Shown one piece after another: positions 18,738 to 37,780 of a DNA stretch of 64,000 nucleotides (the stretch's first letter is position 1; each line of letters begins with the position of its first letter). Source of the DNA: Macrostomum lignano. Lineage: Eukaryota. The notes under the pieces are model-generated. The model saw only the letters and a list, made by a program, of their open reading frames with translations, was not told where the DNA came from and did no database searches. The translations under genes were made by a program, and so were the position numbers. Location of the stretch: positions 310,001 to 374,000 of the forward strand of contig NIVC01000150.1 in assembly GCA_002269645.1 (NCBI GenBank), read 5' to 3'.

Positions 18738-19165
18738 TCATTAATTAATTAATTTAATTAACTTCGATTAACAACAATAAGCGTTTATATACATTTCAAT
18801 GACATCTAATTAGACTTAATCTCCGTTTTTGTTCAAAACATTGCTCGTTTCATCGTTTGCTGCTCGTTTATTTGTAACTCAAAATACATGGTATATTTCC
18901 ACATTTATTTTGTTGTCTAGCGGGCAAAAGCAAGAGGTGTCTCGTTTATTTCGTTCAATGATCGAGACACCGAGGGCTTTTGGCCCTAGACAGCTAAATG
19001 AGTGGGGAATATGATATGTATCCCCGTTCGGTATGTTGGCTGCTAGCGGGGATGAGGGGGCAGATTACTCGCTGGGGGTGTGGGGGCGAAGCCCCCACAT
19101 TTAGGCCACAGACAAACTTGCCACGAACGCACGCCCACTCTCTATATTGAAATTGCAGTAATGGG

Positions 19166-19303
19166 TTAAATGGGGCAAACGCGTCAGTAACTTGATAGTC
19201 TATGGCTGTCTTCCATGCATTTAAATGGGGCAAAGTCGTCAGTAGTGCTTTTAAATGGGGCAGAGTCGTCAGTAATGTTTTTAGCTGGGGCAGACGCGTC
19301 AGT
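19166..19303 (+). promoter_or_regulatory. Four iteron-like direct repeats (TAAATGGGGCARASKCGTCAGT)
   Basis: Copies start at 19166, 19221, 19251 and 19281; the last three have a 30-bp period. They lie just upstream of the Rep-like gene. Function is inferred. Confidence 0.6.
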
Positions 19304-19531
19304 TAGATGGTTTTGAAAAGAATCACTACTGCTACTACTCTTAGTATAATCGATGAATTGATTGATTGACTGCTTTACCTTTCAAAATATAAGTTTTTAC
19401 CTAAAATACTAAGTGTGGATTTAATATTACTGAGCGGCGGCAGCAGCGATGGAGTCGAGCTGGACAGAAGCCTGTACATATGATTTGCCAGTTATTAATT
19501 GGATCACCGCATTGTGTGCTGTCGTAACAGA

Positions 19532-20035
19532 ATGTCTTCTTGGCAAGACGAGTTTACGGACAGCGACGACGAGCGCATCGCAGCTGCATTAGATGAGTAC
19601 GAGCGAGAGAGAGCCGCTGCTGCCCAGAATACGACTGCAGGCCCCGTGTCTTCTGTCCGCAAGCGGGAAGTTTCCGCCGATGGTATCCCACCTGCTGGTC
19701 AGCCGGCACAGAAACGGCGGAACGCCACGACGGACGACGAAAAATCCGACGACGAGTTCAGTGTGCTGGCGTTTAGTAGAGCTACGCAGCGGCTACCACA
19801 GCCGACACTGCCGTCACAGTCAACAATGCAGCAGCAGTCATCCGCCTCCTACGAGCTTGATGAGATGGACTCGGACGACCGGGCGGCCCTCAACGCCATG
19901 CTCGACTACGAGGCGTCCATAAGCCCTGCCGTGCCGCAGCAAAAACCGCCGCCGGAACCTGCTGCAGCTGTCGCCAACCCTGCCGAGCTCTCAACGCTGC
20001 CGAAACCGCCAGCAGTAGCCGCCGAGCTGCATCGT

Positions 20036-20072
<37 letters not shown>

Positions 20073-21796
20073 CTGAAGGGCAGCGATTAACGCAGCAGAG
20101 GGAGCCGTACTCGCAATGGTCAATGCAGACCATGCCTCTGGCGAGCCAACGACGGACCTGGAACCGGCCTGAAGCTCGAGCCGCCGAGGAGCTTCGACCG
20201 GACGAACTGTCCTCGTTAAGCTACAGCCCGCCGTCATCTGCTGCACAGTTAATTCGAATGCTACAGCGCTCGGAGTCTGGCAGTACCATCAGCATCAGCA
20301 GCAGCTCCAGCTCCCGACGCAGCAGAGGCGCAGCGGCAAACGGTCGAGGCAGAGGCGTCGGCGTCCGACAAATCGGCCAGAATCCGCTGCTGCAGGCCGA
20401 CTCGTTCCGCCAACAGTTCACGGTCACTCGATCAGCTAGCCGTTCGCTACCGCTGTATGGTGCCGCTCCGGTACAGCGGCTGGTTGAGGACACCGGAATA
20501 CTAACTGTGCGGCGCTATCTGCACGTCTTCCACATCGATAATTTGCGCTTCATCGGTGAGTAGTAGTAGTAGACTACTCTTCTCCCTGCTTAACTTTATA
20601 CTTATGCATGCAACGCCACAACAATCCCATGTACAGGCCGTGCAAAGGTGTACTTGGGCGAGGCGCTCGAGCCGCACTGCACTGAGTTGCTATTGGCGTC
20701 CAGTCCGGAACTTAACGTCGGCATGGACGAGTCGTGTGACCGCCGGCTAGTGGAGGACCCGCTGGCTGTCGACGAAGAGCAGCAGCAGCACCAGCAGCAC
20801 CAGCAGCATCGCACCTTGTCGGGCTACATTCGGCTTGTGACCAACACCGCCGGCTGGCACGTTTACGAGCTGCTGCACAGACTGCTGCCGGGATCCGAGG
20901 TGGGCCGAGGTTTCGTGCTCAACAACCTCACAACGCTGACAGTCTGCGGTGTGCGTTCCCCTGATACGATTGTGCGAAGTCTCACGCAGCACGATGGATA
21001 CCCGCTCCTGGTCGGCATTGGCGTATCTCAATGCAGCATGCTGGTGCAGGCAACGCGCTGGGTGCTCTCCTACCCGCGGACGGCCAGCCTGCCAAATAAT
21101 ACCGATGGCTTTCTGCTAGCTCACCAGCAGATGCGTGCGGCACTCCTTACGATGTTTAAGGATATCCAGCGCCAGCGTCGCATCCGTCAGGAGCGCCTCC
21201 AACGCTGCTCGGCTTGCTCAGAAGCACTGAAGCAGACAATGCGACACCTGAAGCACCGTCAATGCCCGCTCCGGGTGGCCGTGTGCAATGCCCTACTCCG
21301 GACATCAGGTGTCGTGTACCTTTACGGGCCATCAGGAGTCGGAAAAACCACGGCCGTTGAGCGCCACTGGGGCCTAGAGCGAGTATTCTGCCCAACAATC
21401 AAGCCTTTCGGTGGCAACGACTTCATCTTTGATGGGCTCGACATCAACAGGCACTCTGTCATCTTCATTGACGAAATTCGGCCCCAATATTTTGAAGGGA
21501 GTAGTGACCTACAAGCGACGCTACTGCGGCTGTTGAATGGGAACTCGTTTCTAATTAACGCGAAGCATCAATCGCATGTGTACATCGACTGGGCGCAAAG
21601 ACTCATAGTCCTGGCCGGGCACGCCTCGCCTGAAGAATACAGTCCGGATTTTCAGCGCCGGCTGCGGAACGAGAATAATGTCGCTATAGAAATGGATCAC
21701 GACATTGAAGAATGTCATGGGGAGTGCCAGCCAGTACCTGATGGCGCCTACGCTGCTGACGCCGCCGACGATGAGCCCGACAATGGCATGTACTGA
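19532..21796 (+). CDS. CRESS-Rep-like protein with SF3 helicase domain; spliced join(19532..20555,20637..21796), ~727 aa
   Basis: An 81-nt phase-1 GTGAGT...TACAG intron joins the two tracked ORFs in frame (RFI-G-RAKVYLG). Walker A GPSGVGKT, FDG..Walker B VIFIDE, LLRLLNG and an Arg finger FQRRL are present. Upstream are degenerate RCR-like motifs FHIDN, TLSGY and SLTQHD. The N-terminus is acidic and polyQ-rich. Confidence 0.75.
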
Positions 21797-22476
21797 TCTT
21801 TTGATCGATCGATCGATTAATGTTCTGTTTCTTGACTAATAACTTGGCTACTACTACTATTAGAGACTACTCTGGCCTAATAACGGTTCTTTGTTTAGTA
21901 ATCAATCAATTCATTTATTCAGCTAGCCAGCCAGTCAGTCAGCTTTTCCCCCCTCCCCCGATATTTTTGTCGCATAGTTTAAGGCCTTCTTAAGCCTATT
22001 GTTCCTGTCTATTGACTATACAGTTTTCCGTTGACTAAAAACTGCAGGTATGAAGATTTCTTACCTTGTTGATAATAATAATAATAATCCACAACAATGC
22101 ACAACAGCGATGAGCAGCGGTAGATGATTAACAACAACGGCGGCAGAAGAAAAAGGACGTAAAAAATTCAAATGGCGTGCCAAAGCAGAAAACTTAGTCT
22201 CAATAATAAAATCTCTATATAACTATCAATCGTATAGAAGAAGAAATTAAACGCTAGCTAGCTAGCTGCTGTTAGGGATGCAACTTAAATCTTCCTTGTC
22301 TTTACAGTCGAATACATTAATAGTTTATGGCTTTAAGTTTGATTACATCTATAAATAACTGGTGCATTTACATAATAAATAATAATATAATAATAATAAC
22401 ATCGAACATCTGATCGCGCAATATCAAAAGATGAAAAAATTTATAAACAATGGCTGGCTAACTAACGCATGTCCAT

Positions 22477-22949
22477 CGTACAGTTCATAGTGCGCGCATA
22501 ATTCCCTAAAATAATACGAATAGCTAAATGAATCGAGTCCCTTATAATTTTATAGAGTTTAATGCGCGCACTATGAACTGTACGTAATTTTCATGCTCTC
22601 GAACAATTAACACACTATAGGCAGTGATGAGTATAGCGGTAACAAAAATACGAGCATACAAGCATATCTGATTGCACAAATCGAACGCGTACAGTTTATA
22701 GTGCGTGCACAACTCCTAAAAATATATAAATGTGGAAATTGATTGACATTGCAAATCTCTTAATTATTTAGAGTTTTATGCGCGCACTATCGACTGTACT
22801 AATAATTATATTGCAATACTATAACTGAAAACTATGTCAACAATTAGTACATGCAGAGTCTGTAGCGGTACATAAATAAAAGCACTGCCAAATAAATTAA
22901 TCATTCAAGAACGTATAAGGCGCGCACGTACGTGCGCGCATTATACGTT
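22477..22949. repeat. Three related palindromic sites sharing a GTGCGCGCA core
   Basis: Perfect 23-bp arms at 22477-22499/22562-22584, an imperfect copy at 22689-22709/22779-22799, and a 40-bp palindrome with one mismatched pair at 22910-22949. Confidence 0.85.
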
Positions 22950-22991
22950 ATTGTTATTAATTAATTAATCAAGTTAGTGAGAACATAGCAT

Positions 22992-25643
22992 TCAACGCTG
23001 CCCGCGCATCACCTTAGCCTGCTGCTGCTGCTGCTGCTGCTGCTGCGAGAATTCAGCTGCATCAGTCCTTCTCCTCCGCCGCTGACGAATTCCGTGCAAT
23101 ATGGAATCAGCACGCTGGGTCGGCCGAATCGCAGCGGAATAGTCTTCGCCACAGTCGCCGCCACCGCTGCCATTACTGCCAGCGAACATTGCTGCTCGTC
23201 GGACAACAAGAGCGGAGGATATTGCCGCAGCAGCGCCGCCGTCGACGACTGCTGGAGCAGATACTAGGGCGGCAGATGACGATGTTGACGACGACAAAGA
23301 TGACATTCCCATCGCGGAGCTGTTGCCAACCGCCTGACGTGAGCGGACCACGGCGCCCATTTGCAGAGCTCGGTGCGCATTATAACCGTAATTACGGTAT
23401 ATAACTGCAGCAGAGGTGCCGTGGGCGCGTGCAAATGCGTGCAGCTGCGCAGGCTCCATCGCCAGGACAACGCTGCTCAAGGTCCGGCGCCAGTCTGTCG
23501 CTACATAATGTCTGCCGAGCAATCGCTCTCCTCCGGCGCTGATCATCCGGCTGAAGGCGCTCTCAGTGTAAACCCGGCCGAAGATGTCCAGAAACACCGT
23601 GGACACCTCGACCGCAGGAGCAGCGACTCCGCGCGCAGCCAGGCTCGGCCGGATATAGCAGTCGTGCAGGCGCAGCAGGGCGTCGCAAAACGTATCCGAC
23701 AGCACCATGGTAGCCGGCTCGCCATTGTGCCCGGCCTTGTGCGGAACCTCTGTCAGCGGCATCACCAGGTGCGAGTGACCCTCCAGATCGGACTCCGTGG
23801 CGCTGATCGAGGTGTCCCGAAACAGCTGATCCATGTCGTCAGCTGCCCGGTGTCGCACCCTACGGTCCAGCAGATGCTGTCGCCGCAGATAGATCCACGG
23901 CAGGAGTCGCACTGGCTGTTCGACACTGCAGAAGAACAAGCACTCCTGCACGATGCGGCGGACACAGGCCACCTTGGCGCATAAGTTGTCATCGCCGGCG
24001 TCTGCGTGGTCGTCGGCGGCGGCGGCGCTCCAGTTGCCAGTCTCCGGCAGTCTCTGCCAACTGTGCTCGAAGAGCATCTTAAAGAAGCGGTCGCGCCGGT
24101 CGAAGATGGCGCCGACCTCGCTCCGCTTAACGTAGCTGGCCATGTAGGTCATCTGACGACCGTGATGGCCCAGCTTGTTCAGCTGTTCCTGCAGGGAGCG
24201 GATGGCGGCAAACTCGCCCTTGGCCTCGTTCAGCAACGAAAGCAAGCGTGAGACTGTCAGCTGCCTGGCAGCCAGCGAATCCTTACAGCAGTCGTCACCG
24301 CCGCCGTCATCATCTTTGCTGGCATTTTTTCCCTCGCTCAAAATTTCTGACTGGCGCAGCCCGATTGCGTCGAGCACCTTTTGGAAACAACGGTTGCCGC
24401 GCACATTCAGCCAGCCCTCCAAACACAGAAAAATTGACACCATCTCTTGGCACTTGCGGCCGGCTGTTGAAGGTGCCAACTTTAACTCCTGGGCGACAAC
24501 CTCAAGCCCGAAGACACTGGCGACGAGGTCGGGTCGCAGCACTAAGTCGGCCAGAGTCAGCTGCTTCCGAAGCCAGAGCCGTTCCAGCGTGGCGCCAACA
24601 GAGCAGCAAATTTTCTGCCAGCGACGGCTGTGGCTCTGGTTGGCAGAGACGTGCAGTTTAACTGGTGCGGACCACCAGAGTGCTGTCAATCGACCAAGCA
24701 TGGCATCAATGGACGGTCGATCTGCTGCTACTCCAAGGGCCACCTTTCTGGCGGGGTGCTCTTTCGGTGGTAAAGGTTCCAGCCTGAAATAGCGTCGGTG
24801 CTGTCCTCCTGGTTGCAGCGTTTTTTCCTTTTTCCTTTGTGCTATCTCGCCTTCTTTCTGCGAGGAAGCAGCAGCAGCAGCATAATCAGAGTCACCAACC
24901 TCAGGACTAGTCGGCTGCTGCAACTCGGGCGCCGCTATTTCCAGTGGTTCAGACGCAACGACGGCACTTAGGTCGGAAGCTCTGTCGTTCAACTGAATGC
25001 AATCAGTAGTCGGCTGCTGCTGCGGCGACACAGGTATTAAACTGCTGCAGGCTGCTCGTCCCATTGAATCTGCAGCAACCATCAGACGATCGTAGATCGC
25101 CCCGTCGTCGTAATATTCTGCTGATGCTCTTAACGCAGCAGACCTCATTGCCCCGTCGTCGCCATCCTCTGCTGATGCACTTAACGCAGCAGACCTCATT
25201 GCCCCGTCGTCGCCATCCTCTGCTGATGCTCTTAACGCAGCAGACCTCATTGCCCCGTCGTCGCCATCCTCTGCTGATGATGTCACCGCAGCAGACTGAT
25301 GCTCGGTTGTCACTGGCCGATGGACAGATAATGGGCATAGATGAGCTCGCAGTCGGCGGCGTGACTGTCCGCAGGCGGAACAAACGCCTATCACTTCTAG
25401 ACGATGACTGGCCTTGGTGCTGCGGCTGCATTTGATTGCCAGCCAGATCATGTCTTGCCGCTGTTTGGTAGTTGCGGCCGCCCATTCGTTCTCTGTTGGC
25501 CGCATCCGCTCCGGCATATCACTTAGCGAATAACTTTGAACGATATATTTCTCGTGCCGGTTTTTGTAGTGCCTCTTTAGATTTCCACCGGTCACGCACT
25601 CACAGCACAATGGGCAGACGGAGCTTCTTCTTCCAGAGGGCAT
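22992..25643 (-). CDS. Zn-finger + tyrosine-recombinase-like protein (HK-type, 883 aa)
   Basis: N-terminal C2H2 (CPLC...HYKNRH) and 17-aa x3 coding repeats (51-bp period, ~25110-25290). The C-terminal half aligns by eye to a YR fold: PVR (Arg I), HKAGHNGEPA..L....Y.RP (Lys), VFLDIFG, ATDWRR (Arg II), FARAHGTS...RNY (Tyr). Confidence 0.65.
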   Translation of the reverse strand: MPSGRRSSVCPLCCECVTGGNLKRHYKNRHEKYIVQSYSLSDMPERMRPTENEWAAATTKQRQDMIWLAIKCSRSTKASHRLEVIGVCSACGQSRRRLRAHLCPLSVHRPVTTEHQSAAVTSSAEDGDDGAMRSAALRASAEDGDDGAMRSAALSASAEDGDDGAMRSAALRASAEYYDDGAIYDRLMVAADSMGRAACSSLIPVSPQQQPTTDCIQLNDRASDLSAVVASEPLEIAAPELQQPTSPEVGDSDYAAAAASSQKEGEIAQRKKEKTLQPGGQHRRYFRLEPLPPKEHPARKVALGVAADRPSIDAMLGRLTALWWSAPVKLHVSANQSHSRRWQKICCSVGATLERLWLRKQLTLADLVLRPDLVASVFGLEVVAQELKLAPSTAGRKCQEMVSIFLCLEGWLNVRGNRCFQKVLDAIGLRQSEILSEGKNASKDDDGGGDDCCKDSLAARQLTVSRLLSLLNEAKGEFAAIRSLQEQLNKLGHHGRQMTYMASYVKRSEVGAIFDRRDRFFKMLFEHSWQRLPETGNWSAAAADDHADAGDDNLCAKVACVRRIVQECLFFCSVEQPVRLLPWIYLRRQHLLDRRVRHRAADDMDQLFRDTSISATESDLEGHSHLVMPLTEVPHKAGHNGEPATMVLSDTFCDALLRLHDCYIRPSLAARGVAAPAVEVSTVFLDIFGRVYTESAFSRMISAGGERLLGRHYVATDWRRTLSSVVLAMEPAQLHAFARAHGTSAAVIYRNYGYNAHRALQMGAVVRSRQAVGNSSAMGMSSLSSSTSSSAALVSAPAVVDGGAAAAISSALVVRRAAMFAGSNGSGGGDCGEDYSAAIRPTQRADSILHGIRQRRRRRTDAAEFSQQQQQQQQQAKVMRGQR

Positions 25644-26186
25644 CTTTCTCTAATAATTATTACAAATCATAGGATACAGTGTTGGAAAAAATACCCGGTC
25701 CCCATCCAGCATATATATATGTAGAGATATGTAGAGATAGGAGTTTCATATTTAAAGCATCCTTCCATAACCCGCCTCCTCATATTTCATTGATGGCAAG
25801 CTTATTGGCTTTCAGCTCAGTCAAGTGATCACTATTAAACGATTGACTTAATAACTATTGGTTAAATCAACTGCAGGTCTGGGCTTGGCTGGCTGGCTGG
25901 CTGGCTTGTACTCATCTGACTGAGTAATTTGATGCTTTTTACCATAGACTAAAGTTTACGGTCTCGCCCTCACTAGTGGAATTTTCCGTAGTTTCTTTTA
26001 ACCATAGACTGCTTAACCATAGACTGCTGCAGACCTGTCCGCTTGGGTTTATAAAACTCAGTCAGTCCCTTCCCTCCCTCAAACTGCAAGCATCAGCGCC
26101 CCAGCCTAGCCTACAGTTTCTACAGCTTTTCGAGTAAGTTACATTCATATCTGCTGCTCTGTGCATTATTCTATTACGAAAACAAT

Positions 26187-26505
26187 CAGCTTTCACTACA
26201 GGGCCCTTACAGGTGCTGCAGTTACAGGTGGAGCAGCAGCCTCTCCCTCTCTCTGATATACCCCTTTGTAATTAATTTAAACTCGAACGAATGCAGTTTT
26301 CACTACAGGGCCCTTACAGGTGCTGCAGTTACAGGTGGAGCAGCAGCCTTTCCCTCTCTCTGATATACCCCTTTGTAATTAATTTAAACTCGAACGAATG
26401 CAGTTTTCACTACAGGGCCCTTACAGGTGCTGCAGTTACAGGTGGAGCAGCAGCCTCTCCCTCTCTCTGATATAATATATACCCCTTTGTAATTAATTTG
26501 AACAT
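26187..26505. repeat. 107-bp tandem repeat x3 upstream of the YR gene
   Basis: Units start at 26187, 26294 and 26401 (CAGYTTTCACTACAGGGCCCTTACAGG...). Confidence 0.9.
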
Positions 26506-27328
26506 GCAGCTTTTCTAACATTTTCTATTCGCACTTAATTGCTGCTATGCCTCTAATCAGTATACATATAGTATTGGAGCGAAATAATAAACGTGTCAAT
26601 AATCAGACTGTTGTCAATCAATCGATCCATCGCTTTACACCAAAAGCATGGAACCTGTACTGTACGTATACATACACCGCTGCTCTGATTCGCTGCAATA
26701 TCAACACAGAGAGTGAATTCGTGTGTTCGTGCGATTATAGCGCAAAAACCATAGACTCGTTATTATCAGCTAAGCGAATTACATAAACTGATGCTGCTAA
26801 TCTAAAAATAGCCACAACTGGCTAGCTTATACTTGGTGGAATTTCGTCTTTCATTTCTTGTTATTAAAGAGGCCGGATGAAAATGTTTGATTTCTGAAAA
26901 AAAGCTCGATTCATTATAAACGCTGTTGCTTTCGGTTGCTTCTGCGCTTGGAAATATAAAACTGAAAAATAAGTGTTTTTTTCGCGCCTCTGCAGCTTTT
27001 GATGTGGCTCAAATGAGCCTAGGGAAACCGGATAAGGACCGGATAATTAGGAAAGTAGTATAACAAATTTTAATTTATTTGCATCGATGCAAAGTGAGGC
27101 AAACTAGCAAAAAGTCAAAGGGAACTAAAGTACAAAAGAACTATAAAAAATAACAATAAAAATGAAAAGTATAAATTACGTTTTTAGTCTATGGCACAAA
27201 GCTGAAGGCTAATCTAGAAAGAAATTACTGTACGACGAAGTAAAGTTATTTGTGCAGCAACACTGCAAGCCGGGAGACTTATACGACTGAGAGACGTGCT
27301 GATTTTATCGACAAATAAGCCAAGAGAT

Positions 27329-28604
27329 ATGTCTGGACAGTCTGGTGCTCGACATCAAATCTTGTCGGATGCAGAAGCTGATGCGCTGGTAAGTGCAACA
27401 GTACCACCAAATACGGTCAAGAAGAGTGCGTGGATGATATCGACGTTTAAAGAGTGGCACGAATGCAAAAAAGAAGACTGGGCAAAGAATGGCGGCTCCT
27501 CTCTGATGGTATTGAAATCTATGGACGAATTTACTAGGTCCGACTTGAACTATTTGCTGAAGCTTTTCATCCTTGAGGTAAGGAATAAGAAGCATGAGCG
27601 CTACTCGGCTGGAACTCTCAAGGACTTCGTGTCTATGCTGCAGTATGAAATGCGCAATGTCTACGGAAAGGACTGGAGCCTTTGGACGGATGTTCAGTTT
27701 GCTGAAAGTAGAAAATCGCTGGATGCGGCTATGAAGCTATCAACTGCGGAAGGAAAAGGAGTCGGGCTAAAAAAGTCAGAGCCTGTGACGAAATCTATCG
27801 AAGATGATTGCTGGAATGCTGGTGTGCTAGGCTCCCACAATCCTGAGCAACTAGTTTGCACCGTAATTTGGCTAATTGGCAAGCACTTCGGTCTGCGGGG
27901 TGGTAGTGAGCTACGTGATTTGGAATTCCAGTGCGAGATCAATTTGGATGGCAGTGGGATTAAAGAGTGCCTTGTTTACGAGGAGTGTCGGCGGACCAAG
28001 ACGAATCAAGGTGGCCTGAAAGGAATTCAGAAACAACCGAAAGTAGTCAAAGCTTTCCATGCTGCATGCAGATCCGGAGCAATGCGTTGTGTGCCTATAC
28101 ATCAAGTACGTTTCGTTGCGCCCCGAGAATTGTTCAAAAGCTTTGTTTCTTGCCGCCAAAAAGCACTTGACGGAATCGAACGGAAAAGCCTGGTATAGTG
28201 TTCAGCCTATTGGGAAGAACACTATCTCGACAATTGTGAAGGCCGCAGTGTCTGAAGTTCGGCCAAACAGCACTGCTCGTTTCTCGAATCAGAGCCTGCG
28301 AAAAGCATGTGCTACTCAACTCCACGAGGCTGGTGTCGAACGCGGAGACATTGCTCGGATCACTGGTCACGCTACTACCAAGGCTCTGGAGAAATACATA
28401 GCGCCATCAACAACACGACAAAAGATCCAAAGTGCTATTTTGAGTGGAGACGCCACCGAGGCTTCTGCTGCAAGTATCATACAACAGTCTCATGTTACCG
28501 TGTCCGACGTCAATACCGAGGTTTCTATCGAACCACCTGCTAGTAAGCGCATGCTCATCGAGGCAGACGGTGAAAAAAACGTTGTGAAAATCACATTCTG
28601 TTAG
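27329..28604 (+). mobile_element. Crypton (DUF3504-type) tyrosine recombinase copy A, one frameshift near 28065
   Basis: EVRNKKHERYS, HFGLRG, CVVCLY..Y..LRP, WYSVQPIGKNT, SNQSLRK, ITGH and EKY. ORFs 27296..28198 and 28059..28604 overlap and contain no internal stops. Confidence 0.85.
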
Positions 28605-29199
28605 TCATTATAAGTCCGAAACGAACTTTATATCAGACATTTTGTGTCCTACAGTTGTAATTAAGCTTTTGTGTGCTACACTTTTTTGCTAGTTTTTGTT
28701 AGTCTATGGTTGTTGTCTCGAATTTATCAGCCCGCGGGGCAGCGGGAAATAAATGATTTATTCACCTAGGGAAATAAATGAAAACATGCGTCACATAAGG
28801 CCGTATGAATAAACTGAGCAAATGCTCAAACTCAAGCAAATGCTCAGGTCAATAAGAATAAGTTGAGCTTTTGCTTATGAGCAAATGCTCATGAGTAAAT
28901 GCTCGTGAGCATTTGCTCCGACTCATGAGAAAATTCTCAGCTGCAGAGCAATTACTCCAGTCAGTAAGAATAAAAACATGGCCATAGACAAAAGATCGGA
29001 GCAATTGCTCACAAAATGTTGAGACAGCTGAAAATAAAAATAACAATAAATGAATATCCACATTTTCTAATTTCAGTGTATGGCTATGCACATAAAATAT
29101 AAGAGTACAGCACACAGCACAGCACAAAATTGAAACAGACAGGGGGTTGAATATGTTAAGAGAAAAGAAGAGAGGAATTATTGACTACATACGAGCGTA

Positions 29200-30934: not shown

Positions 30935-32504
30935 ATGCTTGTCGACTGATGAATTGCAATTCGTCACTGGTCAGTCGGTCAACCGCTCTGGAGACATTGC
31001 GATCTCTTTAATTTGCCGAACTCGTGACTCTTGACGCAAGCTTCGTCGAGCTTGACTTACTTGACTTAGCTGCAGGGGGCGTCCGGTGGATGCAGCGAGG
31101 AGGCGGAGGAGACCGCCCATTTCGCTAGCCCCTGGCGACCAATGACTTCCATCGAAGTGATGTCGTTCAGGGGGACCCGTCGGTCTCGCCTGCAGCGCGG
31201 TACTCCTCACCGGCGGTGGGGAAGAAGTCAGCTCGTCCCGTGTCACTGATGTACCGGGCGAGCAGCGGGATGCTCTCGGGCCTGCAAAGGTCGGAGAGAA
31301 CCGGGTTTGGCCCGAGGTGAGTGAGCCTGGCCCTGGTGAAAACCGGACAGTGGCAGATAAAGTGCTCGGAGTTTTCACTGTCTGAGCGGCAGAAGGGGCA
31401 CCGCTCCTCGGGTACCTGGCCCTGAAGGAAGCGGTGGCGAGAGAAGCAGCCATGCCCGGAGAGGGCCATACTGACAGCTCTGAGGTCTCTGCGGTTGAGC
31501 CTGAGGAGGGCTCTACGCAGGAGAGGAGAGGGGCAGGGGACGGCAGCACGGGATTGCCTGCAATTCCGGGTGTCGTACCACCTGCGGAGCTTCGTCTAGC
31601 AGTTTATACAGGGATTGTCAGAGTATCCGGAGTTAAGCGAGAGCGACGTACAGGAGATTCCGAAATTTGTGAAGGATTGCGCTGTGCGATCTATCGCGAA
31701 GCAGACCTAGATCTACTCTGAGAGAGTGAAGGCCTTTCTATCTGAGCGAGGGTTGTCAAGTGACCTCGAGATTATGCCGCCAAGATACGTGTCACTATCT
31801 CCGTTGTTTCTCTCTACCGTCAAGAAGCCCGATGGCACTGCCTACAATTGTAGCACACTTGTGTGCATAAACAGGCTGAAATGCATCGTTTCCTACTGGA
31901 AAATTGAGGCATGCCGCTCATTGGAAATCCGGATTTTGTTGAGCTGGAGAAGACCTTTAAGGCCGCCGCAGACAGCAACCGAGGTCTGTTGTTGACGGTG
32001 AGGTCGGATTTCCGGCAATAAACAGTGAGGAAATGTCTAAGCTGCACGCATACTTCACCATAGCAGATACGAAGAGGCTCCAGTATGAGGTGCTTTTTCT
32101 CATTGTGTTCAATTTCGGCTTTAGAGGTCAGCAAGGTGTGCGAATTAGAAGCAGCTAGACATTCCATGGCCGACATCGTGGCGATAACCAGCCAGAAGTG
32201 CGAAAAGACCGTTCGCCGATATCTCTCAATCAGACGTGACAAGGTGCTAAAGAAGTGCAGCGACGCCGTACGCAAGGTACTGGACATGGAGAAAAATACT
32301 ACACCGGATTTAGATGGTCATGTTATTACGAGCGCGTGCCCATCAGCCAGTACTACAGATAGCCCAGTAGTCAACACAAGCGTCTGCCCAGTCAATATCC
32401 AGAGCTCAACGGTCCAGGAGGCGGTCAACTTCGCAAACGCTCATCCAAATGGCGAGAACATCTTCGTCATGCAAAACTGCATGTTCAACCAATACAGTCT
32501 GTGA
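30935..32504 (+). pseudogene. Decayed, internally deleted Crypton YR copy B, interrupted by a LINE
   Basis: FLSTVKKPDGTAYN, then IVAITSQKCEKTVRRYL and an NCMFN tail. The frame upstream of the LINE continues after it. Confidence 0.65.
31052..31587 (-). mobile_element. 3' end of a LINE (CCHC C-terminus) with a 13-bp TSD
   Basis: [19 protein letters not shown] motif, a (TAAGTCAAG)-like tail, and flanking AGCTTCGTCGAGC (31039-31051) / AGCTTCGTCTAGC (31588-31600). Confidence 0.8.
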
Positions 32505-32805
32505 GAATTCATATGCAACTGACAAAATTGACAAGCCAAAATATTTCAAGAGACTTTAGCCTTCTTGAAATTAGACTGTGTTTCCTAGTGTTTCTTGTCA
32601 CCTTTTTGTTACTGTGCATTGTTGTATTGTATTGTTACTGTGTGATATGCTGTTTTTCTAAATTAATTGTGGACATTTTCCAAGTCGTGAGCATTATCCA
32701 GAAGTGAGGCTAGAACCACAGGCTATAGAGAGAAATCAAAGTTGCGATAGTTTTTACCATGGACAAAATATTATCTAAAAGCACTGACTAGTGACAATGG
32801 TAGAT

Positions 32806-32903
32806 TGCGTAGTAGGTAAGGGACTGAAACAATGGCCAAAGACGAGTGTGCGTAGCGCACGAGTGTCTATGGCCATTATTTCAGTCCCTTACCTACTACG
32901 CAA
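32806..32903. repeat. Long palindrome with a CCA(T/A)AGAC-21nt-GTCTATGG core
   Basis: 39-bp arms with 2 mismatches; the centre contains GTGCGTAGCGC. Confidence 0.9.
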
Positions 32904-33759
32904 CGTCATTGTCTATAACACACATAGAGGCCGTTATTTCAGCATAGCTTAGTCTGGCGGCCAATATTTCAGTGTGTCGGAAGCGGCCATTATTTCACAC
33001 TTTTTATCACGCCTCAATTGGCTGTTTCGAGAGTTATTGTACCCATAGACGACTGAGTTAGCTTGTGTCTTAGTTTGACCATAGACAACACTGTGGTGAG
33101 TGCTGATTTCGTTTGCGTCTTGCAAGAAATTTCAAGACTAGATGAAAGTCTTGACCTGATTTCAGGTCTAGAAAGTCTGAAGAAAGTTTGATTGCAAGAA
33201 ATCAGGAAAGCGGGTAGTACGAGGAAAATTTGTTCCTTGTCAAACTTATTTTTCTTGTCAAACAACTATGGCTGGTGCATCTCGTCAAACAGGCCCGCTT
33301 ATTAATTAGAAAAATCTTCTTGTCGACGACTCAACGAACCGTGCGACCTATGCTTCAGTGGAGGTGACACAGGAGATGCGGGTGAAGTATGGTAAGTATA
33401 ATATGTCAACATTGTAAGTAAATTAGTGGCTATACTAATGGCTATATAGAAACTGTGAATTTTTTACAATGTCCAATTATCTGCAGGTCGGATGGATTCG
33501 GAACGCGCAGTAAGCTTCTCCGAGAACTGCCACTTCAACTATTGCACGTTTCAGTTTTAATGAGCAACTTCCGATGAACATTCTATGACTACTGTGTTGT
33601 TTTTGTGCTTAATGTGCGCGTTTTCCATTGTTCAAAATGTCTATGGTAATTTAGTTCAAGGCAATGACATTCATACAATGATCGGTCATTGTTTGGATTT
33701 TTTAGAAGTGGTATAATTTTTTAAGTTAACGCGTATATTTTAAACTTAACATCTAACAA

Positions 33760-34308
33760 TCAAAGGACACTTTTAGCTATAGTTAATTCGTCGCACAAAT
33801 GTCTCACAAAATTTAGTTCAACTTGCCACAGGGTTGTCGTGACTATTGAAGCCGGTAAAGCATAGGCCCGATTGGATGGAGACAGTGGCATCCGAGCCAG
33901 GAGCAGGGAATATGACTTTCCATCCTGCCGCTTCAATTTAAAGTAGAAGTACCTTAAGTACTGATTGAGGGTTTCGGCCGGCACTTCTGAAACGTCTCGT
34001 AGTTTCTCACTTGCTAGGAAATTAAGGAAGCGTTCACCGTGAATGTACATCTGCTTCCTCGTTTCGGCAGGTAGGCTTTCAATTTCTACTCGATCCATCT
34101 CGTTAACATCAAGTTGCTCGCCATCTAGGCACGGCAGTTCATCGTTGGAACGATCACTTTGAATGTAGTCAAGGAACGCGGCAAAGTCGTCGTCGCGTCG
34201 GTCGATGTTTGAAGTCTCGGAAATAAAGTTCAGTTCGAACGAGTCGACATTGCCTAATTCGTCGATAGGCAGATTGCGCCAATTGATTGGAAAATGAATG
34301 CCTTCCAT
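33760..34308 (-). pseudogene. Crypton YR copy C, N-terminal part only
   Basis: LNQYLRYFYFKLKRQDGKSYS is followed by an abrupt loss of homology. Confidence 0.7.
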
Positions 34309-34579
34309 TCTATCGCGACTCTATGAAAATGATTCTACTCTCCCGATGAACAGCGACTCTTTAAAACTCCGTCATCTTGACCATAGACATATCATTCTCT
34401 GTGATTTCGTGTGTTCTGCCGTTGTCTGGAACTGAACTAACTGACTTTTTCTAACCCTTGGCCTTTACCATAGACGTGGCAGATATTAAGATGTGGGGGC
34501 TTCGCCCCCACACCCCCATTTCCGTCCCCCACCCACTTTGATTTCTAACCCCTAGCTGACAATTTGGACAATGATGTCG

Positions 34580-34668
34580 TCTGGAATTGAGATTTCAGTT
34601 AATGGCCATAGACACGAGCGTGCGTAGCGCTCGTGTCTATGGCCATTAACTGAAATCTCAATTCCAGA
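34580..34668. repeat. Perfect palindrome: 41-bp arms and a 7-nt loop, with a CCATAGAC/GTCTATGG core
   Basis: 34580-34620 is the exact reverse complement of 34628-34668; the loop is TGCGTAG. Confidence 0.95.
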
Positions 34669-34919
34669 AAACAACCCATTGTTTGGTGACTAAAATGTCT
34701 TGCCTATCCTTTTTTCTTGTCAATATATTCCAGAATGCCATGTAGACCATTTGCGAACATTATTCTCTTATGTCAGTTAATAAATGCATAGTTAACTAAT
34801 CGTCTATGATTCAAACGCCTGCTAAAAAGCTGAAATAATGGCCAGTTCAGTTTGTCATTACGCCAGGCTGCGTCTTATGAACAATAATTGATTTTTTCAC
34901 GATAGATTTGAATCTGTCA

Positions 34920-35220
34920 CCATCTGCAATACAACAATGCACAGTAACAAAAAGGTGACAATAAACACTAGGAAATACAGTCAAATTTCAAGAAGGCTAA
35001 AGTCTCTTGAAATATTTTGGCTTGTCAATTTTGTCAGTTGCATATGGATTCTCACAGACTGCATCGGTTGAACATGCAGTTTTGCATGACGAAGATGTTC
35101 TCGCCATTTGGATGAGCGTTTGCGAAGTTGCCCGCCTCCTGGACCGTTGAGCTCTGGATATTGACTGGGCAGACGCTTGTGTTGACTACTGGGCTATCTG
35201 TAGTACTGGCTGATGGGCCC
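34920..35220 (-). repeat. Inverted copy of the copy-B 3' end (~32340-32640)
   Basis: Reverse-complement near-identity, for example GAACATGCAGTTTTGCATGACGAAGATG. Confidence 0.85.
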
Positions 35221-37780
35221 GCGCTTGTAATAACATGGCCATTTGAATATACACATACCGCACGCGAAATACCGCCGATATTGTCGTTTGAGTAACTTTA
35301 AAAATTACACTTACTGACGCATAGCATCCTAAAATTTCAAGTTTAACACAATTACTTGATGCTCCCACCATCTCGTTCTACGTAGTCCCTCATCCCAACT
35401 GTTCCTTTTGTTCGATGTTTAATGCTTGACATGAAATGCTTGTCAATGAATATTACACCCAGTTTTATCCTGCGAAATTTTCTATGGCACTTGAAACTGG
35501 ATGTCAATGCTACATTGTTTTGTAACCTTTGTAAGCTTGTACTCTCTTATATGCAGCTATAATTGCCGAGCATATCCATGAGCACGTACTCATACGAGCG
35601 TAGACTGCTATTTGCACTAGCTAGCTAAGTAAATTTACTCACTAAAGCAAGTGGGGAGGGAGCTGGCCTAGTCTTGCAGATAAGCCGCCGGCTTTTGGTA
35701 CTGCCAGGCGCTGTTATCTTTAGTTCAACTTAGAGGCACCCTGGCACTGCTAAAGAAGACTCTTGAATGTCAGTGAATATAGCAAAATATCAAGTCATAT
35801 TCATTTAAATTTACTACTGAAACAGTAATACTGTACGTCAGTACATGTTTGCGTCCAGCAATTACCTGCTTTCATTTTAGTATTTTTTGTCGAATTCGTT
35901 TAAGCTTTTCATTTGGAGGACAAACAGTGAGACAACCCGTCTCGAATCTGAGTTACCTGATAGGGCTGGCTATCAAGCCAGCCGACTTGAGCCGTTTTGT
36001 ACTGATTTAAGCGAAAAAGCTGCTGTCAAGCTGCTGTCATGCTGTGTCTGCATGAACTGCCCTCTTAACAGCCTACGAGGGCATTTCTGAGACGAGTACA
36101 GTTTATAGTGTACGGTCTCCGAATTCTGAGTCCCGACTCATGCTCGGCTCTCTCTGTTGTAATCTTTCCCCAGGCTGTAACTGCCGCTTAGCAGTCTATT
36201 CCGTAATTTTATTGCTCAGCCCAAGCCTATTTCCTTCTAGTCTTCTTCTCTCACTTCCGAAAGAAGACTATACTCGTAGCTAATTAAATAGTGTACCAAG
36301 AACTTTAAAAGAATAGACGTGAATTGTATAAACATATTCACTAATCATTAAGGGCCGATCGGTTTTTCATATGCAAATTCGTATTTAAGCCTGCATACGC
36401 AGGCTTTGATAAACCGGGTAAATGAAATAACATAAAATTGTTTTCGTTTTCGCCATGAGTCCGAATTCGAATTAGCACAATAGGGTTGAAGTGCATGCTG
36501 CATTGAAAATTGACCACCTAGTCTAGTCCAGACAATCGCAGAAAATGCCCTTCGGCTGCTATTTACTAAATAGCTGAAATTTTACAATGTCTCAAAATCT
36601 AGGTACGAGTATAAAGGCCGCGTCGGCAGTATCAGCTCTGCGCAGAGCAAATATGGGGCTGCTTTTATTGCAATTTTTGTCAATAGACGCTCTCCGCCGT
36701 CTTTTATATAGCCCCACAAGCACCCAAAGCGTGATTGCTTCGATCGGAAGCGAAGCGCAAATTCTGTTTTTAGATTTATGAGCTACAATAGTGGACCATC
36801 TGGAGGTCATTCGCGTTTGACTCATACGATTCAATTGACTCGCACAGGCTTACTTTTAGCGTTGAGCTTAAACCCAGTTAACCTGTGGAGCCAATTTATT
36901 GTGAGCAAAAATAGTGGAAATGATTAAAAAAATCTTTTTTAAAGTTTTAGTTGGTACAGAAACACATTGGCATCGATGTTCTAGCAGTGGGGACATGATT
37001 ACGAGCCTTAGTTATGAGTTGCAGCACTATCCTATAGATGTACGTAATGCAAATTCAGCGGCATAGTGCATTGCTTTGTGCTGAAGCAAGATTGATGGAA
37101 AAGTTTTTTTTCAAAGAAATTCAATGCATTGTGTTTCTCCGAATTAAGTGTATTCTTATGGAACACCGCAGCACCGTTTTGATGCTCGGGTGTTGCACCG
37201 CATTACGTATTCCACTAAATCCCGCTGCCTCATGCAGTTTCTTTATTTCTCTCATTTTCTTCGAAAAGCATCAGAATGTCACTGACAGTCTTCATTTGCC
37301 TCTCTATACCAGTCTCTCTCTCTCCGCTTCTTTTCTTATTATTATTCACTATAAATCTTTTTGTGTAAAATTTAGCTTTTCTAAGGTTTCATTGGGTTTG
37401 CAACACTTTAATGCAAACTGCAGGATAGATAGGGTGGAGGAGAAAGAAAGAAAAAAAGAGGGTAAGAGAGAAACGGTGCGCACAGACAGGCAAGGTAGTG
37501 GCGGTCTCGCCCCTGGGTAGGGTTAGAGTTTCTCGAGACCCCTGCGCTGGGCTTTGACTGGCTAGTTGTCGCCAGCGTGAGAGAGATAAAAAGACAAATT
37601 CAACTGACTGGCTGCTATAGCCATGCAAGTCCCTTAGTTTTCATTTCGAGACTGTCAAAATACAATATCGTCACATGAAATAGGAGTAAAACGTAAAACA
37701 TATTTTGCAGAAGATTTGGACAATAGTTTGCTTTAGCAATGAAAATCGCCAAATAGAATCCTGATAAAAAGCCCTAATTA

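Follow-up and report, generated by a model that had tools for sequence, protein, structure and literature searches.

We observed that one gene in the stretch of Macrostomum lignano DNA analysed here (the window, 64,000 nucleotides) is a CRESS-type Rep in which the HUH and catalytic Tyr motifs are replaced and the SF3 helicase motifs are kept, an identification confirmed by the comparisons below. The gene resides in a mobile element of ~8 kb (19112–27070 of the window), together with a divergent tyrosine recombinase (YR). Our preferred reading, to which we give a probability of about 0.6, is that the YR moves this capsid-less element as a double-stranded DNA circle and that the Rep, devoid of the nicking residues, serves as an origin-binding helicase in the manner of E1 and large T. 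One database protein with 97% identity also carries the name of this free-living flatworm. The features of the element are given below in window coordinates.

19112–19119, plus strand: left 8-bp core ACAAACTT, at the left junction; predicted crossover core
19532–21796, plus strand: Rep gene, ATG at 19532, stop at 21796, 727 aa by count
19532–20555, plus strand: first exon of the Rep, which encodes an acidic, low-complexity extension of the N-terminus and, at its end, the strand of motif I
20556–20636, plus strand: spliceosomal intron, 81 nt, GT-AG, phase 1, with in-frame stops inside
20637–21000, plus strand: rest of the HUH-derived domain, lacking the catalytic residues; predicted origin-binding domain
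21001–21280, plus strand: helical region, the match of the post-nuclease domain of intact relatives, and then a Cys-rich linker
21281–21796, plus strand: SF3 helicase with Walker A, Walker B, B′, motif C and Arg finger
22477–22584, about 22688–22803 and about 22891–22966: three palindromes with AT-rich spacing, between the convergent genes
22992–25643, minus strand: divergent YR with an N-terminal C2H2-like finger
23915–23895 (Arg), 23747–23736 (Lys), 23495–23484 (Arg) and 23396–23385 (Tyr), minus strand: YR residues
27063–27070, plus strand: right 8-bp core ACAAATTT, the same sequence as the one core of the empty sites

A query with the helicase found 51 places in the 764-Mb assembly, and the Reps fall into at least four families (A to D, the window element being of family A) with mutual identities of 30–50%. 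In the window protein, motif I reads FHIDN (20528–20542), motif II TLSGY (20813–20827) and motif III SLTQHD (20978–20995). The preliminary description of this DNA had called these motifs degenerate and devoid of the catalytic Tyr, and all the motifs that it quoted are present. A search of 1.84 billion representatives returned 18 matches, some of which carry an intact HUH and YITKED; after a further search the HUH-intact set comprised 18 proteins, where motif III is invariantly Y-x-x-K-E-D (18/18), and five of these match Gemini_AL1, weakly. The HUH-intact group (P0014–P0036) consists of unnamed CRESS-like Reps with almost no Pfam annotation, residing on contigs of 1.2–4.5 kb. When the profiles of the Tyr-less and the intact groups were compared, the match extended over the whole length (99.8% probability over 248 columns). 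The N-terminal parts alone, with the helicase removed, were also aligned to the HUH-intact Reps, a check that the preliminary description had put forward, and matched with 97% probability (E 1e-10), with SLTQHD opposite YITKED and TLSGY opposite the HUH strand. As these parts align on their own, the motif assignment goes beyond chance; the profile alignment stopped short of motif I, and FHIDN is taken as motif I from its position and from the first strand of a family-B model. The helical region that follows has a counterpart in the intact relatives that is likely an oligomerisation domain.

The Tyr of motif III is missing from all nine Tyr-less rows covering it, which represent families A to D and five outside proteins (P0004, P0006, P0009, P0010 and P0011); the latter sit on contigs of 1.3–2.1 kb. 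No substitute nucleophile is conserved, because the Tyr near motif II aligns with a position that is merely hydrophobic in character, and families C and D have Phe there. YxxKE is absent from all six frames of the element. One motif III pattern search could return Tyr-less rows only and was left out of the evidence. No HUH-intact Rep was found elsewhere in the genome with one intact query, a limited test. In the tree, a 99/98 branch sets the Tyr-less group apart; the tree is midpoint-rooted, 5 of its 9 Tyr-less rows are partial and it includes no E1 or large T. The dead domain had no match in Pfam, PHROGs and PDB sequence searches and none in the ESM Atlas. A search for loci related to the outside proteins gave none, save one weakly related CRESS contig of 2181 nt with a likely capsid ORF, which was set aside as too distant.

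Structure prediction, which the preliminary description had also suggested, agreed with an HUH fold. The model (pLDDT 75) is of the family-B dead domain, where no intron is present, and not of the window protein, and 13 of the 21 rows of its alignment are HUH-intact. Each of its eight best structural matches was either an HUH nuclease (Reps of nanovirus, circovirus and vientovirus) or an origin-binding domain of the E1/large-T type (HPV18, BPV and SV40), with Z scores of 7.5–8.1, values near 8 being moderately above background only. Against viral structures, five matches had E ≤ 0.001, the named one being a cressdnavirus Rep, and Foldseek on the PDB gave nothing at E ≤ 0.001.

The helicase part was also as first described, with Walker A, Walker B and the Arg finger kept and motif C reading VLAGH, all located within 21326–21661. 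Walker A (GPSGVGKT, 21326–21349), Walker B (IFIDE, 21461–21475), B′ (NAKHQ, 21557–21571) and the Arg finger (FQRR, 21650–21661) are retained, whereas motif C (VLAGH, 21608–21622) has His in place of Asn; it is AGH in families A to D and has Asn in the intact relatives. This His may alter ATP hydrolysis. Across the four families the protein retains all three parts together: dead domain, helical domain and complete helicase, Arg finger included.

We then compared dN/dS by domain among the copies, as had been proposed, and observed that the dead domain is under purifying selection, with dN/dS of about 0.15–0.2. It was 0.20 for a family-B pair (136 codons) against 0.63 in the linker, 0.16 for a family-C pair and 0.15 between C and D, where dS is saturated. 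Within C, and between C and D, the amino-acid identity of the dead domain is near that of the helicase. Rows with saturated dS, near-identical A pairs and the helical-domain row of C3789b (frameshift) were left out, and so was the family-B helicase row, where a dS of 0.06 against 0.46 next door suggests exchange between copies. Since the same losses occur in four divergent families and in five outside proteins, and since the domain is under purifying selection, the loss of the nickase is old and the dead domain is maintained, which is neither decay nor domestication.

The Rep gene is made of two in-frame ORFs, 19499–20563 and 20594–21796, flanking the intron. Motif I is preceded by ~330 acidic and low-complexity residues, and exon 1 is stop-free in all four of the other family-A copies that hold it. 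Repeated acidic amphipathic segments were seen in the Rep N-terminus of families A (19532–19950 of the window) and C and in a separate ORF of family B (L045:7533-8555; L050:8160-9089); from their look we take them to be candidate host-factor-binding activation motifs. The intron, which the preliminary description had placed near motif I, is skipped exactly by one contig of the RNA-like run X1, one of four runs compared over 20080–23000 of the window. In contigs of X3 and X13 it is retained, and X9 has no cover there. The RNA status of X1 is a guess of the tool, and its cover ends by 22235, unlike that of X3 and X13; X3 was also guessed to be RNA, yet covers the whole intergenic region. In five family-A copies the intron measures 81, 80, 78, 78 and 78 nt, with donor and acceptor conserved. 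Its position in A is after the first strand, as splicing showed; from sequence, introns are predicted to follow the second strand in C and D and to interrupt the helicase in B. The introns of families A to D look as if each family had gained its own. Introns are also present in the Reps of exogenous geminiviruses and genomoviruses, as a preprint describes (bioRxiv 10.1101/687855). Because of this, and because the positions differ between families, the intron is no proof of long residence in a genome, and the earlier idea that it signals long nuclear residence is not upheld.

The ends of the element were defined from homology between copies and from empty sites. Family-A homology spans about 19105 to 27071. 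At four loci the flanks of the window element are joined around one ACAAATTT, whereas in the filled site of the window the left core is ACAAACTT and the right core ACAAATTT. The core ACAAACTT is also found at the left end of an independent insertion at C283, whose empty site has one ACAAACTT and whose filled site has ACAAACTT and ACAAAATT. A family-D insertion at C957 carries GCTATCTT and GCAAACTT, and GCAAACTT is the core at its empty site. Each of the three insertions for which an empty site was found thus turned a single core into a pair differing at 1–2 positions. TATCTT begins all three family-D insertions, the flanks of which are unrelated, and the variant left core of this family must therefore come from the element. 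Terminal inverted repeats are absent, the ends being 8-bp imperfect direct cores. A target-site duplication would leave two copies of the target, whereas here one copy can be that of the element. As far as the sequences go, the junctions fit a crossover between a core on a circle and a similar core in the host. Family-D copies are 99.0–99.9% identical at unrelated sites, and therefore the movement was recent. One of them, at C957:80449-88537, lies within a repeat, the second copy of which on the same contig is identical over ~200 bp and empty, suggesting that this insertion is very recent. Matches to the ends in the assembly included no head-to-tail junction. Stops or frameshifts are present in many copies, and copy numbers are low.

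The ORF at 22992–25643 is predicted from its model and conserved residues to be a tyrosine recombinase. Its R..PW, HK, R and Y positions are invariant in representatives of the four families (A to D) at 25–30% identity, and the His of H-x-x-R is absent; in the C1938 subfamily the first Arg and the Tyr are lost. No match was obtained in Pfam (including DUF3504 and Phage_integrase) or PHROGs, the PDB sequence search did not see it, none of 7999 candidates was a homologue when its alignment was used as the query, and no relatives were found in viral contigs. The model (pLDDT 66) had tyrosine recombinases and topoisomerase IB throughout its top ranks (best Z 8.6), with Foldseek E-values of 0.01–0.1 only, and in the ESM Atlas it scored 0.96 to a cluster that has Phage_integrase on 17% of its members. 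The preliminary description had supposed that cutting and joining were handed to a neighbouring YR. As the partner, this ORF fits; the Crypton-type YR at 27.2–28.6 kb is situated beyond the element and unrelated to it in sequence. As to the function, a handover is likely for excision and integration. YRs make a 3′-phosphotyrosine and free a 5′-OH, which cannot prime synthesis; hence, the YR is no stand-in for the nickase as the primer-maker of rolling-circle replication, and that part of the supposition is not supported.

Between its defined ends, family A has two long ORFs only, Rep and YR, in convergent orientation; the two are in tandem in C and D and variable in B. No capsid gene was found in family A, scanning of 11 ORFs for capsid families gave no match, and phage records did not match the element. 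The YR is near the Rep in 15 of the 18 fetched Rep loci, some of which are haplotype duplicates, and at the other three (C84, C267 and C2240) there was none within the fetched stretch. At C3789:52000-72000 and C2956:60000-80000 a C-terminal piece of the YR is upstream of the Rep and its N-terminal part downstream, which suggests tandem or permuted copies. Family B is far larger, at more than 20 kb (C157:498000-538000, C2367, C267). It contains palindromes and tandem arrays, a second ORF with a zinc finger, and several other ORFs that match nothing in Pfam. The palindromes at 22477–22966 gave a z of −7.5, with equally good folds in none of 100 shuffles, and their arms are less than 100 nt apart; families C and D have only single counterparts. 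By position and fold, they are candidate origin or termination signals.

The window copy is inserted in the upstream flank of a DUF3504 Crypton. The Crypton-type YR (27187–28709; DUF3504, QRICH1 and Phage_integrase matches) is split over two frames and flanked by direct copies of TAGTCTATGG, outside the Rep–YR element. The 8-mer CCATAGAC occurs 44 times against 1.5 expected, between 18365 and 63734 of the window and never before 18365, and some copies are within the Rep–YR element and in long palindromes. It includes, in reverse complement, the TATGG that PMC3212892 reports as a terminus of CryptonS. At 32308–35248, inverted arms of 322 nt surround two near-perfect hairpins (32805–32903 and 34575–34673) on the CCATAGAC motif; these structures are possibly non-autonomous Crypton-like elements.

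From the loss of HUH and Tyr across the lineage, the kept helicase motifs, the selection, the Rep–YR linkage and the core-type junctions that we observed, we infer the circles, their replication and all the enzyme activities in the following scheme. The predicted YR would excise the element as a double-stranded circle. The former nuclease domain would bind an origin on the circle, the SF3 ring would unwind it, and host primase and polymerases, perhaps recruited by the acidic N-terminus, would copy the circle with neither a nick nor a single-stranded stage. The YR would then reinsert the circle by crossover at a short core. Replication of the circle would supply the gain in copy number that cut-and-paste YR elements lack and, if true, it is one route by which a recombinase-based transposon gains copies.

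Alternatively, the Rep could be an accessory of a YR-mobilised element (a regulator, a helicase for excision or integration, or a factor for circle maintenance) and not initiate replication of the circle. The evidence on mobility all points to the YR, motif C has an altered residue, an activator function would suit the long acidic N-terminus, and dead Reps under selection for unknown non-canonical roles exist (PMC10193959). However, the dead, helical and helicase domains kept together in four families have the architecture of E1 and large T, whereas captured poxvirus Reps have mostly lost domains, according to the same paper. On balance, we consider an accessory role unlikely, though the likeliest of the alternatives. 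It is improbable that the element is an integrated small dsDNA virus or satellite, with a capsid encoded by a different segment or a helper, or overlooked in family B. The nearest intact Reps are CRESS Rep-like and on contigs of 1.2–4.5 kb, and the >20-kb family B has unannotated ORFs, but family A has just two long ORFs between defined ends, the 11 scanned ORFs gave no capsid match, and viral contigs offered no relative of the YR.

The long palindromes between the genes and the tight linkage of Rep and YR could also mean that the YR replaced the HUH in a rolling-circle scheme, or that, by recombining inverted repeats, it makes a rolling circle out of a theta fork, which is what Flp does for the yeast 2-micron plasmid. 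This appears even less probable: YR cleavage leaves a 5′-OH and no primer, the palindrome arms are under 100 nt apart, and the terminal cores already account for the role of the YR. Finally, splicing of the Rep in the RNA-like run X1, purifying selection on the Rep and the three of 18 loci without a YR in the fetched stretch would suit a domesticated host gene, as the preliminary description had offered, or a decayed endogenous CRESS virus beside an unrelated YR by chance. This is very improbable and largely refuted by the empty sites of three insertions: the gene is in a mobile element with independent insertions, family-D copies at unrelated sites are 99.0–99.9% identical, and the many copies with stops or frameshifts are typical of a mobile family.

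The origin-binding helicase reading can be placed among known systems, and each part of it has precedent (E1 and large T; Cryptons; apvRep and U94; Replitrons). The intact CRESS group P0014–P0036 shares colinear nuclease, helical and SF3 domains with the window Rep at 20–25% identity; the latter lacks HUH, Tyr and Lys, carries His in motif C, has a long acidic N-terminus and is partnered by a YR. With respect to Cressdnaviricota, the Rep has the HUH-type plus SF3 architecture but not the active HUH/HUQ and YxxK. Like Replitrons and Helitrons, the element is a eukaryotic transposon with a Rep-family protein; those use an active HUH transposase, whereas this element combines a dead HUH with a YR. 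Replitrons are described as having short terminal direct repeats and no helicase (PMC10288648). In the avipoxvirus apvRep and HHV-6 U94 the nuclease motifs are inactivated, the helicase is partly kept and selection is purifying; with a dead nuclease plus helicase, they are not known initiators in that account (PMC10193959). They are captured passengers of large viruses having their own replication machinery, whereas the Rep here is one of two genes. With Cryptons, for which a circular intermediate and crossover insertion were proposed (PMC3212892), the element shares a YR, the lack of terminal inverted repeats and short terminal direct repeats. Of the Crypton R-H-R-Y, its YR keeps Arg, Lys, Arg and Tyr in a predicted YR fold, with the His absent; unlike the adjacent Crypton, it has no DUF3504 or Phage_integrase match in Pfam, and the second gene of the element is for a replication helicase; the word helicase is absent from the main text of PMC3212892.

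The closest functional parallel is with E1 and large T, which likewise have an inactivated HUH before an SF3 helicase (PMC13595969), and whose origin-binding domains tie for the top structural match of the family-B model. By sequence the window Rep belongs with the CRESS-like group, its closest sequences being CRESS-like Reps, and unlike papilloma- and polyomaviruses, the element lacks a capsid gene, has a YR and lives integrated. In Papovaviricetes the inactivated HUH recognises the origin and there is no single-stranded DNA stage (PMC13595969; PMC6668415), and E1 and large T are proposed to descend via parvoviruses (PMC6668415). In the literature searched, which lay outside Repbase and most subscription papers, no description of a Rep–YR pairing in an animal mobile element was found. 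The element is possibly a new class of YR-mobilised element, the Rep–YR linkage being known from one genome, and with it a laboratory flatworm yields a divergent YR whose matching of 8-bp cores is relaxed. We put forward only tentatively, at slightly below even odds, the wider view of a class of self-amplifying animal DNA transposons extending beyond one species, with an independent nickase loss, a Rep acting as origin helicase of a dsDNA circle and their own YR lineage, that is, a capsid-less, integrating, papova-like replicon. A 2026 taxonomy review recognises one HUH inactivation among small DNA viruses, behind papilloma- and polyomaviruses (PMC13595969), and the forces behind it were called obscure (PMC6668415). 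If the helicase reading is right, the change in this Rep would be a separate switch from rolling-circle replication, and as the dead lineage can be aligned residue by residue to intact relatives, the turning of a nickase into an origin binder could be studied directly.
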